DNA of 64,000 bases, taken from the NCBI RefSeq assembly GCF_056712565.1, contig NZ_CM160072.1; one strand, 5' to 3'. The notes beneath the pieces were generated by a model. That model worked only from the letters and a program-made list of their open reading frames with translations, was not told the origin of the DNA and made no database searches. A program made the translations under genes and the position numbers. This document shows, piece by piece, positions 1,888 through 56,369 of the stretch (the stretch's first letter is position 1; each line of letters starts with the position of its first letter).

Positions 1888-3315
1888 ATGTCGATCAAAA
1901 CCAGTAATACAGATTTTAAGACACGCATTCGTCAGCAAATTGAAGATCCGATCATGCGCAAAGCGGTGGCAAACGCGCAGCAGCGTATTGGGGCAAATCG
2001 GCAAAAAATGGTCGATGAATTGGGGCACTGGGAGGAGTGGCGCGATCGGGCCGCCCAGATACGTGATCATGTTCTGAGTAATCTCGACGCTTATCTGTAC
2101 CAGCTCTCAGAAAAAGTGACGCAAAACGGAGGTCACGTCTATTTTGCAAAAACCAAAGAAGACGCCACCCGCTACATTTTACAGGTTGCCCAACGCAAAA
2201 ATGCCCGGAAGGTGGTGAAATCTAAATCGATGGTGACCGAAGAGATTGGTGTCAATCATGTGTTGCAGGATGCCGGGATTCAGGTGATTGAAACCGATCT
2301 GGGTGAATACATTCTCCAGCTGGATCAAGATCCGCCCTCTCATGTTGTGGTCCCGGCAATTCATAAAGATCGCCATCAGATCCGTCGAGTGCTACACGAA
2401 CATCTGGGCTATGAGGGGCCGGAAACGCCTGAAGCGATGACCTTATTCATTCGGCAAAAAATCCGCGAAGATTTCCTCAGTGCTGAAATAGGTATTACCG
2501 GCTGTAATTTCGCGGTGGCAGAGACCGGTTCGGTATGCCTGGTGACCAATGAAGGTAATGCGCGAATGTGTACCACGCTGCCTAAAACGCATATTGCAGT
2601 GATGGGAATGGAGCGTATTGCTCCCACGTTTGCAGAGGTAGATGTATTGATCACCATGCTGGCGCGCAGTGCCGTTGGTGCACGTTTGACGGGATACAAC
2701 ACCTGGCTGACAGGACCGCGCGAAGCGGGGCACGTTGATGGTCCTGAAGAGTTTCATCTGGTTATTGTCGATAACGGGCGTTCTGAGGTGCTGGCCTCTG
2801 AATTTCGGGATGTGCTGCGCTGTATTCGTTGCGGGGCTTGTATGAATACTTGTCCGGCATATCGCCATATTGGCGGTCATGGATATGGCTCTATTTATCC
2901 AGGGCCAATTGGTGCGGTGATTTCCCCGTTACTTGGCGGCTATAAAGATTTTAAAGATTTACCCTACGCCTGCTCTTTATGCACCGCTTGTGACAGCGTG
3001 TGTCCGGTGCGTATTCCGCTGTCAAAACTGATTTTGCGTCATCGTCGGGTGATGGCTGAAAAAGGGATCACCGCAAAAGCAGAGCAACGGGCGATAAAAA
3101 TGTTCGCTTATGCCAATAGTCATCCAGGATTGTGGAAAGTTGGGATGATGGCTGGTGCTCATGCGGCAAGCTGGTTTATCAATGGCGGCAAAACACCACT
3201 CAAATTTGGCGCGATTAGCGACTGGATGGAAGCACGCGATCTTCCTGAAGCTGACGGAGAGAGTTTCCGTAGTTGGTTTAAGAAACATCAGGCGCAGGAG
3301 AAAAAGAATGGATAA
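1888..3315 (+). CDS. ykgF: LutB-like iron-sulfur protein (YkgF)
   Basis: 475-aa ORF; two ferredoxin-type cysteine motifs visible (CIRCGACMNTCP and CSLCTACDSVCP); 10 bp after ykgE. Confidence 0.9.
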   Translation: MSIKTSNTDFKTRIRQQIEDPIMRKAVANAQQRIGANRQKMVDELGHWEEWRDRAAQIRDHVLSNLDAYLYQLSEKVTQNGGHVYFAKTKEDATRYILQVAQRKNARKVVKSKSMVTEEIGVNHVLQDAGIQVIETDLGEYILQLDQDPPSHVVVPAIHKDRHQIRRVLHEHLGYEGPETPEAMTLFIRQKIREDFLSAEIGITGCNFAVAETGSVCLVTNEGNARMCTTLPKTHIAVMGMERIAPTFAEVDVLITMLARSAVGARLTGYNTWLTGPREAGHVDGPEEFHLVIVDNGRSEVLASEFRDVLRCIRCGACMNTCPAYRHIGGHGYGSIYPGPIGAVISPLLGGYKDFKDLPYACSLCTACDSVCPVRIPLSKLILRHRRVMAEKGITAKAEQRAIKMFAYANSHPGLWKVGMMAGAHAASWFINGGKTPLKFGAISDWMEARDLPEADGESFRSWFKKHQAQEKKNG

Positions 3316-4003
3316 TCGGAGCAAATTTTTGAATAACGTTGCTCAGGCACTGGGGCGCCCGCTGCGACTTGAACCGCAAGCAGAAGATGCGCCGCTTAAC
3401 AACTATGCTAACGAGCGGCTTACCCAACTTACCCAACAGCAGCGCTGTGACGCGTTTATCCAGTTTGCCAGCGATGTTATGTTGACGCGCTGTGAACTGA
3501 CCAGCGAGGCGAAGGCGGCAGAAGCTGCAATACGTCTGTGTAAAGAGCTGGGAGATCAGTCGGTCGTGATTAGTGGTGACACGAGGCTGGAGGAATTGGG
3601 GATTAGCGAACGTTTGCAGCAGGAATGCAATGCCGTTGTTTGGGATCCGGCGAAAGGTATTGAGAACATATCACAAGCAGAGCAGGCTAAAGTGGGCGTC
3701 GTATATGCTGAATATGGTTTAACCGAATCGGGAGGCGTGGTTCTTTTTTCCGCCGCCGGGCGCGGGCGTTCATTGAGCCTGCTCCCGGAATCTTCTCTTT
3801 TTATCCTGCGTAAAAGCACAATCCTGCCGCGTGTAGCGCAACTCGCAGAAAAATTGCATCAGAAAGCGCAGGCCGGTGAACGAATGCCGTCATGTATTAA
3901 CATCATCAGTGGTCCCAGTTCAACGGCGGACATTGAGCTTATCAAAGTCGTCGGGGTTCATGGTCCGGTGAAAGCGGTGTATCTGATTATTGAGGATTGC
4001 TGA
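3308..4003 (+). CDS. ykgG: LutC-like protein (YkgG)
   Basis: In-frame ATG at 3308 overlapping the ykgF stop gives 231 aa (MDNRSKF...), the expected size; the longer ORF from 3155 is an upstream extension inside ykgF. Confidence 0.85.
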   Translation: MDNRSKFLNNVAQALGRPLRLEPQAEDAPLNNYANERLTQLTQQQRCDAFIQFASDVMLTRCELTSEAKAAEAAIRLCKELGDQSVVISGDTRLEELGISERLQQECNAVVWDPAKGIENISQAEQAKVGVVYAEYGLTESGGVVLFSAAGRGRSLSLLPESSLFILRKSTILPRVAQLAEKLHQKAQAGERMPSCINIISGPSSTADIELIKVVGVHGPVKAVYLIIEDC

Positions 4004-4245: not shown

Positions 4246-4914
4246 TTACTGCCCAGAGTTTTGTTGGTATTCATCTACCATTTTTTTGACAAGGCAAAAC
4301 ATCACAGAAATCACAATACTTAGAAAAAATCCCAGAGCCAGGCAAATGGCAGCAGGGTATTTATTTTTTATTTCTGGTGAGCTTATAGTGACACAGCCAT
4401 CACCGTTCGGATACAGTGACCAGTTCCTGGTCAGGTATATCATTTTTGTATAAAGCTCACTGTTAATTGCTGAAGGCGTTTGTATCTCATCGAGAACTTG
4501 CCTGCCATTATGGTATTCTGACGCATACCATTTGATGATAGACGCCTGCACGCGAGATATTTCCGCTTCAGCAGTTGGTAAATCTCTCTTATTTCCTGAC
4601 CATTCCAGCTTTATTTCTCTGTTCTTGACATCTGGGCTGGTCTGAAAAAATGTAGTAATTCGCTGAATAACATCTTCAGTCATTGTGGTCTGACAGGCAA
4701 AGTTATTATTGCTATCACAGCTAACAAGTATGCCTGGTGTTGTCTGGTTTATTTTTAGACTGTAAGTCACTTTTATATTATCTTTATTGATATACAGAAA
4801 CAACAGCACCATTACCATACAGATAGCTATAATAAAAAGGATAACACGAATCTTTTTCTTCAGATAAAATAAAATCTCAATCAGATCGATATCCTGTTTG
4901 ATTTGTTCATTCAT
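4246..4914 (-). CDS. ykgH: Predicted inner-membrane protein YkgH
   Basis: 222-aa ORF with an N-terminal hydrophobic segment; position after ykgG matches K-12. Confidence 0.85.
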   Translation of the reverse strand: MNEQIKQDIDLIEILFYLKKKIRVILFIIAICMVMVLLFLYINKDNIKVTYSLKINQTTPGILVSCDSNNNFACQTTMTEDVIQRITTFFQTSPDVKNREIKLEWSGNKRDLPTAEAEISRVQASIIKWYASEYHNGRQVLDEIQTPSAINSELYTKMIYLTRNWSLYPNGDGCVTISSPEIKNKYPAAICLALGFFLSIVISVMFCLVKKMVDEYQQNSGQ

Positions 4915-5097
4915 AATATATCCAGAAAATGAAATCTGTCGCAGATAAGATTGTATTAATAGTCTGTATCAGGAATGTTCAGGGTAAATATCAGCAAAAA
5001 GCCAGCATCATGAATACTGGATATTTATAGCCTGCAGGCAGCATACTGCTGCCTGCAGGGGGTATAACAGTCGACAGGGGAACCGACTGCTTTATTC

Positions 5098-7395
5098 TTA
5101 CCAGGTCACATTGATACCAACTACACCCTGTAGCGGGTTCTCAATGTCGTCACCTTTGGTGTAGTCAAGGCTTGCATATGCTCCCATGTTTTTGGTGATA
5201 TCAGCCTGTACACCTGCACCCACGCGGAATGCTGCACCGTCAATGCTGGCATTGACAGACTCATCACCCAGACGGACTTTGTTGCCATCAGAGAATTCGT
5301 TCAGTGCGGCCAGATTCAGATAAGGTTTAACGGTCGCGTTGCCCACAGCGAAGTCATAACCCACGCGCGTACCGGCCTCACCCAGCACAGAGTTATAGCT
5401 GTCAGAATGAACGTCCACGCCGTTGAGTTGATAATCCACACCTTCCAGAGTCAGAGCAGACAGTTTGGCATATGGCTGAATAAACAGGCCATTACCGTCT
5501 TTCCATGTGTAACCGCCTTTAACCATCGCACCAAAACCATTGGTGTTAAAGTCAGCTTTGATGGTACCGCCACCATTCATCAGGCGAACATCTGCCGTGT
5601 TGCTGTAGTGACCAAACTGTGCAGCAGTATCAATGAAGATACCGTTGTTATACTGGCGGCTCAGGTAAGCGTGGAAGCTGTAACCTTCAGTGTCACCTTT
5701 GCTCTGCATGGTAGTCATGTCACCTTTCGCAGAAGACATCGCCACACCGGCCAGCCAGCTACCATCTTCAGTCATGAAGCGGGTATCACCACCCAGCATT
5801 ACACCATTTACATCCAGGTCATAGGATGCATTTCCCGCGGTGGTATGTTTCTGTTTACCGCCAAAGTACTGAATCCATACGCCACCCTTGTCATTTTCGC
5901 TCAGACGGACAGCATCCTGACGGGCGGAGAGCGTGTCAGCCTGCAGATTAGCGACGTTAGCCGGAGCAGCTGCCATTGCCTGAATCACGGAGCTGGCGTT
6001 GGATGCTTTATGCGTGTTTTTTACGAAATAAAAGTTACCATCAGCTCCCTGTGTCAGGTCATATTGATACAGACCACCTTCCGTTGTGCCTGTGGCTTTT
6101 AGAGTGCTGTCTTTGCCGGTAGAAATAAATGCCGTTTGTTCATTGATAAGATCCAATGAACCCGCACTGTAAACACGCAAGTCACCGCTCGCTTTACCGC
6201 TGATATCCAGAGTGTTTTCAGAAGAGGCATCAACAATCAGAGTGCCGTTTTGAGAAGCAAACGTGCCAGTATTGACTGTAGCCTTCGTGATATTAACCGT
6301 ACTGTCTTTTACTGCCAGAGCATCAACAGTTGAGGAACCCGTAACATTCCAGACAGACCCGTTTTGCAGAGATACACTGGCATCTCCTGCCCCTGAAACT
6401 TTGCCTTTCCAGACTGAACTATCGGAAAGATTTATATCCAGATCACTACCCGCTTTATCGCCGCTATTGAAGGTATAAGCATTACCTTCCCAGTAAGAGC
6501 GGGCAACGTTCATATTTACATTTGTTGTGGTACTGGCTGAATTCTCGCTTTCAGAAAGGGCCAGGACATCAGAGTAGATGGTTGAATCAGCAACAGACAA
6601 ATTTAAATTTTGCGTTGCTGAACCTGCGCCTTGTGCCGAAGCAGAGGCATAAATTGTTTGTTTATTATTAGCCGCCCCAATTACTGAGCCATCCTTAATA
6701 TTCAGGTTGACTGTATGAATTCCCGTCTTATTCCCGGCAGTAACTATTGTTTCAATCCCGCCATTAATAATATTTGAGTCAGCAAGGGTGATGTTGTCGG
6801 TTGCATCACCGTCAAAACCCTGCAACAAATTACCCTTTTGAGCAAAAATTGCCGTAGAGCCGTTGCTGTAACTCTTATTACCTTGAGCATTTATGGTTGT
6901 ACCATTGAGCGTTAAATTATTTCCCGTGGTCGCTTCCAGAGATATCCCTGTCGCACTACCTTTTTCATTTTTTGCAACGAAATTACCGCCATTAACAACA
7001 ACATCGCCAGTTGAATCAATGACCATTGCAGTCCGGACATAGGTGCCTTCACCTTGAGCTGTGATGGTGGAGTCTGTAGCATTAATCACAACATTTTTGT
7101 TACCACTAACTTTTACACCTTCAACGAAATCTTGGTTTACCGTTGATGCGGCGGTAATATCGTGACCGCCAAAAGTAACATTAAGGTCTTTATCTGAATC
7201 TGACGTTTCAATTGTTACGGCTGTAATCTTGTTATCACCGTTAATAACAACATCTTGATCCAGAGTCGTCTTCTCTGTATTCAGCGTAACCGGATCAGTT
7301 GATACCGTGCTATCAGTAGCGAATGCTGGTGCAGAAAGAGCCATAACAATAGCTGTCGCTAATGCGCTGCGGTAAAATGCCTTACTGTTTTTCAT
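5098..7395 (-). CDS. upaE: Type Va autotransporter: signal peptide, N/T/G/S-rich beta-helix-like passenger, C-terminal beta-barrel ending in W. Possibly UpaE
   Basis: Long ORF; start chosen at MKNSKAF (7395), which has a GGAG motif 9 nt upstream and a classical signal peptide; passenger is rich in short N/T/G repeats; C-terminal roughly 280 aa is barrel-like and ends GINVTW. Symbol by locus architecture from memory, not alignment. Confidence 0.7.
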   Translation of the reverse strand: MKNSKAFYRSALATAIVMALSAPAFATDSTVSTDPVTLNTEKTTLDQDVVINGDNKITAVTIETSDSDKDLNVTFGGHDITAASTVNQDFVEGVKVSGNKNVVINATDSTITAQGEGTYVRTAMVIDSTGDVVVNGGNFVAKNEKGSATGISLEATTGNNLTLNGTTINAQGNKSYSNGSTAIFAQKGNLLQGFDGDATDNITLADSNIINGGIETIVTAGNKTGIHTVNLNIKDGSVIGAANNKQTIYASASAQGAGSATQNLNLSVADSTIYSDVLALSESENSASTTTNVNMNVARSYWEGNAYTFNSGDKAGSDLDINLSDSSVWKGKVSGAGDASVSLQNGSVWNVTGSSTVDALAVKDSTVNITKATVNTGTFASQNGTLIVDASSENTLDISGKASGDLRVYSAGSLDLINEQTAFISTGKDSTLKATGTTEGGLYQYDLTQGADGNFYFVKNTHKASNASSVIQAMAAAPANVANLQADTLSARQDAVRLSENDKGGVWIQYFGGKQKHTTAGNASYDLDVNGVMLGGDTRFMTEDGSWLAGVAMSSAKGDMTTMQSKGDTEGYSFHAYLSRQYNNGIFIDTAAQFGHYSNTADVRLMNGGGTIKADFNTNGFGAMVKGGYTWKDGNGLFIQPYAKLSALTLEGVDYQLNGVDVHSDSYNSVLGEAGTRVGYDFAVGNATVKPYLNLAALNEFSDGNKVRLGDESVNASIDGAAFRVGAGVQADITKNMGAYASLDYTKGDDIENPLQGVVGINVTW

Positions 7396-7436
7396 GAAGA
7401 AATTCTCCATTCTGGTAACTAATTTCAATTTCCCAC

Positions 7437-8198
7437 TTATTTATATTTATGCAGAGATAAAGCCTGCGTCCCTGCATTTACCACCACGGAATACCTGTTG
7501 GTATTTCCGTTTTCACGCAATGTCATGGCATTCGTTGTTTCCAATGCATTTCCATCACCGTGAAAATTATTGCTGCTCAGCAGCAGGGCTTCCCGCAATG
7601 ACATGCTGTCCGGTATTCCCCAACGCTTTTTTAGCGACTGCTCGGCAAGCCATATCTGTCTTATCCCCGTTTTGAGAAACTGCGCACTGTATTCCCAGCT
7701 GTGTCCGGCAAGAAGTAACGACAACACCTTCTTTTGCTTTTCCGGGAAGCGTTCTGACATGACGATTGTCTTTGTGCGGTTATTCACCTCTTTCATAAAG
7801 ACAGAGTAACTGTCCATAACTGGCAAAATTTCTGCATGCTTCAGCCCTGAAAACCCACCAGAGGCATTTGCAATACTGATGACACGCTCTACTGACATTC
7901 CTGGTTTCAGTAACCTCAGGTTTTTGAGAACGCCAGAAATACTCACATCCGGTGGCAGAAAAAAGGGCGTGACGCACAACACCACCACGAATGAGTGATC
8001 CCGATAAAATCGGAACCACATTTCAGCGCATTCGGCAGGTCGCCCTGCCGATATCACGACACTCTGTGGCCTGTGCCGCAATTTATTGCGTAACTCCTCT
8101 TCTGTTCTGATGCAGGTAACATTGCCGACAGAACCGGTTGATAGAGCTGCGAACTGCGCTGGTACAATTCCTGAGGGACAGAAAAGAACGAAACGCAT
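7437..8198 (-). CDS. Hypothetical regulator with a degenerate LuxR/GerE-type HTH region
   Basis: 253-aa ORF directly upstream of the autotransporter (8-bp gap); segment LSLLLAGHSWEYSAQFLKTGIRQIWLAEQSLKKRWGI loosely resembles a LuxR HTH. Confidence 0.5.
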   Translation of the reverse strand: MRFVLFCPSGIVPAQFAALSTGSVGNVTCIRTEEELRNKLRHRPQSVVISAGRPAECAEMWFRFYRDHSFVVVLCVTPFFLPPDVSISGVLKNLRLLKPGMSVERVISIANASGGFSGLKHAEILPVMDSYSVFMKEVNNRTKTIVMSERFPEKQKKVLSLLLAGHSWEYSAQFLKTGIRQIWLAEQSLKKRWGIPDSMSLREALLLSSNNFHGDGNALETTNAMTLRENGNTNRYSVVVNAGTQALSLHKYK

Positions 8199-8351
8199 CC
8201 TTCCCTCACAGATGTCAGTACGCCAGCACGCTGTACAGGCTGTACAGCGTGCCTCCCAATCCTGCAGCCCAGAACAGTAGAAATATTTTGGCTCCTACAC
8301 TGTAGCGAGTCCGTATGCGCCGCAGTGGGTGGTAGTAACAACGCTGCTGTG

Positions 8352-9146: not shown

Positions 9147-9172
9147 TCAGACTCGTCCACGCCATTGCTACA

Positions 9173-9465
9173 AAACCTGACATTTTGATTCAAAATGTCA
9201 GGTTTGGTTTAATAGCCTGAATATTTAATTTTCTTGGAATATAAATCTGATTTGTTTGATTTTTATTGTTTTTAATTTTGTATTATTTAACAATATGGGC
9301 GAAAGTTAATCACTGGTATGACCTTTGTGATTAATCATTTCAAATCATGGGGTTATTTTACTTTAGCTAGAAATATCAACATGTTATGTGTTTTATTTAA
9401 TTGAATGGGCTGTTTTTTTATGGAAGAATTGAGGAAAACGTAGGAATCTGACATTTTGAATCAGA
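9173..9465. promoter_or_regulatory. Candidate invertible promoter switch: 12-bp perfect inverted repeats (tcaaaatgtcag at 9190-9201, ctgacattttga at 9448-9459) flank a 246-bp AT-rich segment; a 33-bp perfect palindrome spans 9173-9205
   Basis: Repeats read directly from the sequence; element sits between the recombinase stop (9476) and the LuxR gene start (9146), the same layout as fimE-fimS-fimA. Confidence 0.6.
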
Positions 9466-9475
9466 AGGTACTGTT

Positions 9476-10039
9476 TTAACGAGGCTTTTTTTTCCACACC
9501 CCTTTAAAACGAGCAGCATTACTGGCTGTGTATCTGACAGTATGCTGAATATTTCGATGACCCAGGTAATCCTGAAGTAGTCGGGTATCGACACCATTGT
9601 CAGCCAGAGCAAAACCACAGGCATGACGTAACATATGAGGATGTGCTTTTACAGCTAATCCTGCACGTTTTCCAGCCTCACGAATGATAGAAAAAAAATG
9701 TTGTCTGCTGATAGGGCGGCGTTTCCGGGAGAGAAAAAGCCAGTCTCCTTCAACTCCGTTTTCAATTAACTTCCTCTGCTTAAGCCACAACTTGATCAAA
9801 TTATATTCATCAGGAAGAAGAGGATGTGTTGTCGAGAAACCATTTTTAATACGCCGAATATTAAGTTGTTTTCCAGATGCATCAATATCGGATAAACGTA
9901 AATCAAGAAGTTCACTGGCCCTAAAACCGTGAATGAAAGCCATCATAATCAGACAGCGATTTCTTTCAGGAAAGGACATGCTCTGGGCTGCATCCATCAG
10001 CCTGTAGACTTCATCCTGTGTGAGATATTTTCTCGTCAT
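9476..10039 (-). CDS. ipuA: FimB/FimE-family tyrosine site-specific recombinase, possibly IpuA
   Basis: About 187-200 aa with FimB-like motifs (HGFRASE, GFSTTHPLL, HPHMLRH, CGFALA, DTRLLQDYLGHRNIQHTVRYTASNA); no fimbrial genes adjacent. ATG at 10039 preferred; alternative GTG at 10078. Confidence 0.8.
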   Translation of the reverse strand: MTRKYLTQDEVYRLMDAAQSMSFPERNRCLIMMAFIHGFRASELLDLRLSDIDASGKQLNIRRIKNGFSTTHPLLPDEYNLIKLWLKQRKLIENGVEGDWLFLSRKRRPISRQHFFSIIREAGKRAGLAVKAHPHMLRHACGFALADNGVDTRLLQDYLGHRNIQHTVRYTASNAARFKGVWKKKPR

Positions 10040-11108
10040 ACGCCACCGTGTACAGTTGTAAAAAAAAGAGAGGCACACCCAGATAAGTATGCCTGCAATC
10101 AGAACGTTATCGATGTAATCTCATTATCTCATTAATAAGATTTTTTGAATAGTAGTTCTACGCAACAGATTAAATATGAACTATTTATTGTGCAGCTTTT
10201 CTACAAGTCATTTTTAATGCGTGTTTTTATCTACTATAATGTGAAAAAAATAAATATTAAAACTATGAGTGACAGGTCGTGTGGGATGTGTATTACGTCT
10301 AATGCTTTAGTAATTTTTTATTATTTCTGAGATATTTAACATCATTTCCTGTGAGATTGTCTTGTTGTGTATCTAATTGATTTTAATTTTGTTTTTTTTG
10401 ATGCATAAATTTGGATGATAGAAAGTAAGATTAGCTTAATATCAATGATATGAATTTATAAATACATATTGTTGCAAGGTGTTCTTTACTTTTTTGGTCG
10501 TTAGTAAATCATTGTTAATGGGTTCTGTTCATAAATTAAAAATATTCATTTAAATGATTTTTACTTTTTGTATATCTCAATTTGTTTATTTTGCATTCAT
10601 TTGATGGAGAGTATTCCAACACTTTTTATTTTTCGCAAAAAACTTATTAACAACTTTTTATTATCAATTGAAAATTAATGTAAACTAAAATGTTAGCGAA
10701 GCGATAATCTTGTGCTAAAAAATATTTAAGCATGATGATTAATTAAAGAAGAGTAAAAATAAATCGCTGCTAATAAATTATACGAACCGTGTTTAAAGCT
10801 CCATGTGGTTTTGGTCTGACTTATTTTTGTACTCGTTACAAGAACCCTTTTCGTACATGCTAACCGTGAGCGGGAATGAACAGGTAACCATAGCCAGGAA
10901 CATTAGCGGCGTAATTCTTAAGCTGAGTGGTATTTCATCTGTAGTTTATCTGTGTATGCATAGCACCTTCATCAGCCAGATTGAGCAAGTCAGCTTAGAA
11001 TTTGCTGGTGAGATTGTCACGATGAAGCATGAGAGTTACCTCAGTGTTTTATATAAGGATTCGGTCCTCATAGTAGAACGGTAACTCTCAATCTGATAGG
11101 TTCCTGAG

Positions 11109-48700: not shown

Positions 48701-51813
<3,113 letters not shown>

Positions 51814-51819
51814 TCACAC

Positions 51820-51849
51820 AACATACGAGCCGGACACATAGAGTGTAAA
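51820..51849 (-). promoter_or_regulatory. lac promoter (-35 TTTACA, 18-bp spacer, -10 TATGTT)
   Basis: Reverse complement reads tttacactctatgtgtccggctcgtatgtt immediately upstream of O1. Confidence 0.85.
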
Positions 51850-56316: not shown

Positions 56317-56369
56317 ATATACTATAGGGGGGTATGCTATATGTCAATGCATACCCCCCTATAGTATAT
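56317..56369. promoter_or_regulatory. frmRAB operator: perfect 21-bp inverted repeats carrying G6/C6 tracts
   Basis: atatactataggggggtatgc (56317-56337) and its exact reverse complement (56349-56369), 25 bp upstream of the frmR start. Confidence 0.8.

Follow-up and report, generated by a model that had tools for sequence, protein, structure and literature searches.

The locus examined here raises the question of what a long and perfect palindrome does between the stop codon of an autotransporter gene and the boundary of the genomic islet that carries this gene. The window, by which we mean the whole stretch of 64,000 nucleotides analysed, is Escherichia coli DNA of a B2-like type, and at the locus considered here it is 100% identical to ATCC 11775 and other B2-type strains. 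The autotransporter gene is hyxB, also called upaB, which is annotated in RefSeq on the minus strand at 5098-7395 and has a match to Pfam PF03797; in the list of open reading frames it starts further out, with a TTG at 7428. Downstream of it, and also on the minus strand, follows the core gene ykgH (4246-4914), into which any read-through from hyxB would run. The islet, hyxB-hyxA-hyxR-ipbA/fimX, lies between ykgH and betA and is known as PAI-X (PMC12922286, PMC11294581). According to RT-PCR in an APEC strain, each of the four ORFs in the cluster is transcribed as a unit of its own, and the upaB promoter is bound by AutA and AutR (PMC4844996). In the papers on PAI-X, UpaB and AutA/AutR that we consulted, the palindrome is not mentioned.

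The core of the palindrome (5031-5059) consists, on the plus strand, of the arms CCTGCAGGCAGCA (5031-5043) and TGCTGCCTGCAGG (5047-5059), which are 100% complementary and separated by the 3-nt spacer TAC. In the sense RNA of hyxB it reads CCUGCAGGCAGCA-GUA-UGCUGCCUGCAGG and folds into a stem of 13 bp, nine of them G-C pairs. The minimum free energy of the 29-mer is −25.6 kcal/mol as RNA, for either strand, and −16.7 kcal/mol as DNA, and the hairpin is present in both the minimum free energy and the centroid structure of a 151-nt context in hyxB sense (z = −4.3 against shuffled sequences). The perfect 13-bp stem with a 3-nt loop that an initial annotation of this DNA had described is thus borne out by both arm complementarity and folding energy. 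The window contains five loci with perfect hairpins of at least 13 bp and loops of 0-12 nt, where a first-order Markov simulation of the window leads one to expect 0.017, so that the hairpin at 5031-5059 is no chance match. Around the core extends a palindrome of 43 bp (5025-5067) with the layout TTATA-g-stem-ggg-TATAA, in which a 1x3 internal loop separates the feet, TTATA and TATAA, from the core stem. Pairing is weaker in this outer part, with four of the five foot positions paired in the fold of the minus strand. Each arm of the core also contains the self-complementary octamer CCTGCAGG, the two copies being 21 bp apart from centre to centre.

In an alignment with K-12, which lacks the islet, homology stops at 5024|5025, with a 2-nt AT ambiguity, and is back at 11022|11023 (...CACGAT|GAAGCATG...). 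All islet-less genomes that were sampled break at the same left position, 5024|5025. It follows that the stem begins 6 nt inside the islet and that the extended palindrome starts with the very first islet base, in agreement with its earlier placement at the islet boundary. PAI-X itself is always found at one site, between ykgH and betA.

Some further features of the islet and its right-hand surroundings may be recorded here. The right-hand 1.1 kb of the islet (9900-11000) are non-coding and very A+T-rich (24-38% G+C), and some records annotate only a frameshifted hypothetical gene in this region. Downstream of betA, at 11030-11090 of the window, lies a 10-bp inverted repeat, GAGAGTTACC...GGTAACTCTC, with a 41-nt spacer; it begins 7 nt beyond the right islet junction and in K-12 adjoins the weak hairpin with a U-tract that is described below. 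In the record of O157 strain 9000, hyxR, ipbA and ykgH are pseudogenes.

Since the hyxB stop codon, TAA, is at 5100-5098 on the minus strand, 38 nt separate it from the stem, close to the 40 bp or so estimated initially. The hairpin had also been judged not to be a textbook intrinsic terminator, and this assessment holds. The stem is not followed by a U-tract on either strand, the sense tail being CUAUAAAUAU and the antisense tail, on the plus strand, GGGUAUAACA; a scan with the terminator consensus left the hairpin uncalled; and its approximate d'Aubenton-Carafa score is −16.5, compared to +27 for a trpA-like control. The 3' UTR of hyxB contains three hairpins in tandem, of which the perfect one is the second. 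The first, between the stop codon and the main hairpin (5092-5067, minus strand), has 8-9 bp, an 8-nt loop and an energy of −9.6 kcal/mol. The third (5020-5002) is a weak hairpin of 8 bp, CCAGUAUUCAUGAUGCUGG, with −7.5 kcal/mol, and is followed by CUUUUU, so that hairpin and tail together span 4996-5020 on the minus strand. This weak hairpin with its U-tract, 11 nt downstream of the perfect hairpin, is the sole terminator-like site after hyxB; it belongs to the core DNA and is also present in K-12. Its tail differs between alleles, being CUUUUU here, UUUUUU in a second allele and AUAUUU in one variant. The variant with the last of these tails (CTTTTT to ATATTT in the DNA) has a HyxB of 860 aa. 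For transcript ends, a Term-seq dataset of O157 Sakai is available (GSE143631, PMC7547250); in the Sakai-like record AP018488 the hairpin is intact and is located at about 361,765-361,793.

A search with a 42-nt query (E ≤ 10) located the palindrome in 1890 of 5426 complete E. coli genomes, at one locus in each; the two places per genome that this search reports are the two strands of one palindrome. As hyxA is present in 1894 genomes, the palindrome appears as a constant part of the islet that occurs nowhere else. The alternative considered at the outset, that otherwise identical islets lack the palindrome, is therefore contradicted by these counts. The window holds no other copy of the motif, only matches with one or two mismatches that lie far off and are at the level of chance. 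A dispersed repeat of the REP type was ruled out on these grounds, there being one locus per genome and no further copy in the window. Rfam 15 has no family for the hairpin; the one overlapping hit, to mir-6511, is attributable to chance (27 bits, with a gathering threshold of 87; E = 0.3).

A genome collection of other genera yielded no copy of the exact palindrome; the collection does not include Escherichia, so this result is silent on relatives within that genus. DNA coding for YkgH was seen in this collection only on two contigs of 256 and 272 bp, in assemblies of Nocardioides and Amycolatopsis, and most likely represents E. coli contamination. In a metagenome scan only three contigs matched, all of them from E. 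coli and all with the flipped-loop allele described below. The homologues of HyxB and YkgH that we retrieved were likewise all from E. coli, the most divergent YkgH matches being error-rich E. coli or Shigella-like assemblies.

The loop (5044-5046) exists in two forms, TAC and GTA on the plus strand. The exact 42-mer of the window, with the TAC loop, occurs in 1434 records and its GTA version in 395, corresponding to about 76% and 21% of the carriers. GTA is the exact reverse complement of TAC; both 13-nt arms and the length of the loop are unchanged, and all 13 pairs are kept. Going by the alleles themselves, this difference is the signature of a loop inversion, produced by template switching or by recombination within the arms. 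Template switching has been described as a source both of loop inversions and of perfect stems that arise in one step (Mönttinen & Löytynoja 2022, PMC8794818). The flip seems to have happened once and then been inherited: the loop state is monophyletic in a tree built from the neighbouring 900 nt at the 3' end of hyxB, we found no haplotype that combines the flanks of allele 1 with the GTA loop, and an intermediate haplotype (strain LR-28) is consistent with a linear path between the alleles. These three observations argue against recurrent flipping, and the discordance on the core side of one locus (L015) is also better explained by recombination.

Other variants are rare. Single changes, such as an additional G behind the stem, are seen in about 50 genomes, and in six to seven genomes, which we call the ES5 type, three changes in the arms lead to three mismatches in the sense RNA. 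The ES5 type represents one lineage and has the sole degenerate copy of the palindrome, and its hyxB is truncated through a deletion of the 3' end. Such decay would be compatible with relaxed constraint. Between haplotypes whose flanks diverge by about 5%, only some 1.3 changes are expected in 26 nt, which makes the conservation of the stem statistically uninformative; selection and homogenisation by template switching cannot be separated by sequence conservation alone.

When aligned across genomes, the locus has three independent rearrangement junctions at the feet of the palindrome, namely the islet/core junction at the left and two deletions at the right. The deletion of the ES5/1604D011 type (5068-6903, six to seven genomes) removes the 3' 1.8 kb of hyxB, and its left endpoint coincides exactly with the right end of the extended palindrome, immediately behind the TATAA foot. 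The second deletion, in CH4797 (approximately 5066-8051, about 3 kb), removes hyxB and most of hyxA and has its left endpoint inside the right TATA foot; because of a 3-nt TAT microhomology, its endpoints are defined to ±3 nt. The junction lies at 3039-3041 of the CH4797 locus, which outside the deletion is 99.9-100% identical to AR_0119; the deletion is very recent. For two endpoints to fall within 8 nt of the stem by chance, we arrive at about 4e-5, a rough estimate that assumes an even spread over approximately 2.5 kb. A search with the right flank did not find another sizeable class of such deletion variants, and the internal hyxB deletion of the O157 type (5277-6313, 1 kb) is distant from the hairpin.

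Insertion sequences do not appear to target the hairpin, as the IS3-family insertions of SCU-306-type strains fall within hyxB and leave the hairpin untouched. SCU-306, one of a group of at least eight strains with this arrangement, has two IS3-family copies in hyxB (2533-3746 and 4729-5942 of its locus, L001). In strain 21220, an IS1 joins the upstream region of ykgH to lacZ, with PAI-X, bet and everything up to lac deleted; this IS1-mediated deletion is unrelated to the hairpin.

The clustered junctions would fit a palindrome that acts as a natural hotspot of slippage deletions and shapes PAI-X, perhaps to the point that the "empty site" of K-12-like strains is not where the islet first inserted but the result of a 6-kb deletion, triggered by the hairpin, from an ancestral islet. 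We put this forward tentatively and hold it to be somewhat unlikely. It draws on the two deletions at the right foot and on the left-foot junction with its 2-nt microhomology, to which the flipped loop would add separate evidence that replicating DNA forms the hairpin in vivo. Furthermore, the islets of B2 and of O157/ES5-type strains diverge by about 5%, similar to the flanking core DNA, which suggests a long residence in the species and hence makes loss of the islet from islet-less strains possible. If so, the deletion responsible may have had one of its endpoints at the palindrome's left foot.

The other perfect palindromes of the window offer a comparison. A second one within the islet, GCACGCTGTACAG-g-CTGTACAGCGTGC (8226-8252, −19.6 kcal/mol), lies in the gap between hyxR and hyxA, at a distance of 100 nt from the hyxR stop and 27 nt from the hyxA start; its sense strand lacks a U-tract. 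Near hyxR, the repeats of the invertible promoter contain the motif TCAAAATGTCAG three times: one copy is at about 9447-9462, and two form a back-to-back inverted pair (9170-9208), which is a palindrome with 19-nt arms. Outside the islet, the lac operator region (51786-51820) has perfect 13-nt arms, TGTGTGAAATTGT N9 ACAATTTCACACA; it presumably differs from the K-12 operator at some two to three positions. A further palindrome with perfect 16-nt arms and an 11-nt spacer, CTATAGGGGGGTATGC N11 GCATACCCCCCTATAG, lies between frmR and yaiO (56325-56367) and is probably the FrmR operator, given its G-tract flanked by A/T-rich repeats. The palindrome in the hyxR-hyxA gap, like the weak hairpin with its U-tract, the inverted loop allele and the deletion breakpoints at the feet, goes beyond what had initially been noted for this locus.

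The reading that we favour, with a probability of roughly 45%, is that the palindrome serves as a stem-loop in the 3' UTR of the hyxB mRNA, as a barrier to exonucleases or an aid to termination, and that as DNA it is prone to slippage. The last 43 bp of PAI-X would accordingly provide the main stem-loop of the hyxB/upaB 3' UTR. As it lacks a U-tract, the hairpin alone is probably not sufficient to release RNA polymerase. It would instead block 3'-to-5' exonucleases and perhaps assist pausing or termination, and transcripts would end further on, either at the weak hairpin with its U-tract 11 nt downstream (5020-4996) or through Rho. The outcome would be a stable 3' end of the hyxB mRNA and limited read-through into ykgH. 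At the level of DNA, the palindrome would fold on single strands during replication, which may have given rise to both the template-switch inversion of the loop and the endpoints at the two feet.

Several observations speak for this role in the 3' UTR. The stem is perfect and stable, forms in its sequence context, is on the transcribed strand and follows the hyxB stop after 38 nt, as one of three tandem hairpins of which the last has the only U-tract. It accompanies hyxA almost without exception (1890 and 1894 genomes), keeps its 13 pairs in both loop alleles, is single-copy and falls into no Rfam family. It has decayed in the ES5 type, where the 3' end of hyxB is deleted, and a similar hairpin is found in the hyxR-hyxA gap. 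The separate transcription units detected by RT-PCR lend circumstantial support (PMC4844996). Against it stand the uninformative conservation of the stem, the confinement of the ES5-type decay to a single lineage, the fact that the three other palindromes of the window with a recognisable role are DNA-level sites and no terminators, and the ability of template switching to make and keep a perfect stem without selection.

The strongest rival, which we still consider unlikely, is that the palindrome is a neutral by-product of rearrangement, generated in one step by template switching or fold-back at a breakpoint, and nothing but slippage-prone DNA. The islet/core junction (5024|5025) and two deletions fall at its outer ends, the inverted loop is proof of template switching or intra-arm recombination at this site, a single template switch is able to produce a perfect stem (PMC8794818), and there is no significant excess of conservation. 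However, a 3'-UTR element would be expected in just this position, on this strand and at this distance from the stop codon, the palindrome has been kept perfect across islet haplotypes that are about 5% diverged, and the sole degenerate copy is found where hyxB is truncated. Less probable still in our view is a candidate DNA site for a dimeric protein, be it HyxR/AutR, HyxA/AutA or some host factor with ykgH or hyxB as its target. The dyad is indeed perfect, with the octamer CCTGCAGG in both arms at 21 bp from centre to centre, two of the five perfect palindromes of the window are at operator positions (lac and upstream of frmR) while another, at the hyxR switch, is a recombinase site, and AutA and AutR are DNA-binding proteins with a target at the upaB promoter (PMC4844996). 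Yet no related motif is found near the promoters of hyxB, hyxA and hyxR or elsewhere in the window, a 3-nt spacer and a G+C-rich arm of 13 bp are atypical of operators, the location is the 3' end of a gene, and the core gene ykgH is without the palindrome in two thirds of the genomes. In an informal inspection by eye, we also saw no match to LexA, CRP, FNR or lux-box spacing.

That the hairpin by itself is a functional Rho-independent terminator of hyxB, in spite of its poor U-tract, we regard as very unlikely. The strength of the stem, its proximity to the stop codon and an A/U-rich tail with four U in ten positions would suit a terminator, but the consensus scan and the approximate score both reject it, and it is well established that hairpins without a U-tract are generally poor terminators in E. 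coli. Finally, the palindrome could mark where a mobile element ends or attaches, serving the recombinase that moved PAI-X as a subterminal recognition hairpin. The hairpin is 6 nt from the end of the islet, and the islet encodes a tyrosine recombinase (ipbA/fimX). However, IpbA/FimX, the only recombinase present, is an invertase whose repeats (TCAAAATGTCAG) are unrelated to the hairpin, and the islet has no transposase or integrase that would mobilise it. In comparison to shuffled sequences, terminal repeats common to the two islet ends, whether direct or inverted, do not exceed chance, and the right junction has no matching hairpin; an end of the IS200/IS605 or attC type would require a counterpart, be it a structure or a repeat, at the opposite end, and none is present. 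Since the islet also has one chromosomal site, and the palindrome one locus and no copy in the other genera searched, we consider this explanation highly improbable.

Taking the 3'-UTR stem-loop as the preferred reading, the locus can be compared to known systems. With Rho-independent terminators it shares a G+C-rich stem-loop on the transcribed strand soon after the stop codon, within a series of hairpins of which the last is followed by a U-tract; it differs from them in having no U-tract beside the hairpin itself on either strand, in failing both scan and score, and in its longer and more perfect stem. Extragenic palindromes of the REP/BIME type reportedly stabilise the 3' ends of mRNAs, and stable stem-loops are said to form the endpoints to which Rho-terminated transcripts are trimmed. 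Like both of these, the hairpin is extragenic, stable, devoid of a U-tract and located in a 3' UTR, with a proposed block to 3' exonucleases. The 43-bp extended palindrome between hyxB and ykgH resembles REP/BIME elements, which are imperfect palindromes of approximately 35-40 nt. In contrast to these, however, the hairpin occurs at one locus per genome, in islet carriers only, and has no REP consensus, so that it is proposed to work like a REP element without being one.

Among the parallels to the loop flip are the small inversions associated with hairpins in chloroplast DNA. Template-switch mutations of hairpins (PMC8794818) provide a closer one, in that the alleles differ solely by the reverse complement of the loop and the arms remain intact. 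Those cases are changes in rRNA and miRNA genes, whereas the two alleles here segregate as a polymorphism within the 3' UTR of a bacterial gene. Deletion endpoints in E. coli have reportedly been found associated with palindromes, and our endpoints likewise show 0-3 nt of microhomology at the base of the hairpin. In the classic cases the palindrome is usually lost, whereas the two deletions described here spare it and remove 1.8-3 kb on one side.

We conclude that the hairpin is real and very stable, and most likely ordinary in kind, a 3'-UTR stem-loop whose role in the RNA we infer from its structure and position. What is unusual about it is confined to the loop inversion and the clustered breakpoints; both concern mechanisms of mutation and do not constitute a new kind of system. 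HyxB/UpaB is an adhesin of UPEC and APEC, and PAI-X serves as a uropathogen marker. Where the hyxB transcript ends and how far it reads through into ykgH are thus relevant to expression studies and to the construction of mutants and reporters. Beyond this, thousands of sequenced genomes make the locus a compact natural example of how a short perfect palindrome can leave behind a loop inversion, flanking deletions and an islet boundary. As such, it may be used to test models of hairpin slippage and to distinguish whether PAI-X was lost from K-12-like strains or was never present in them.
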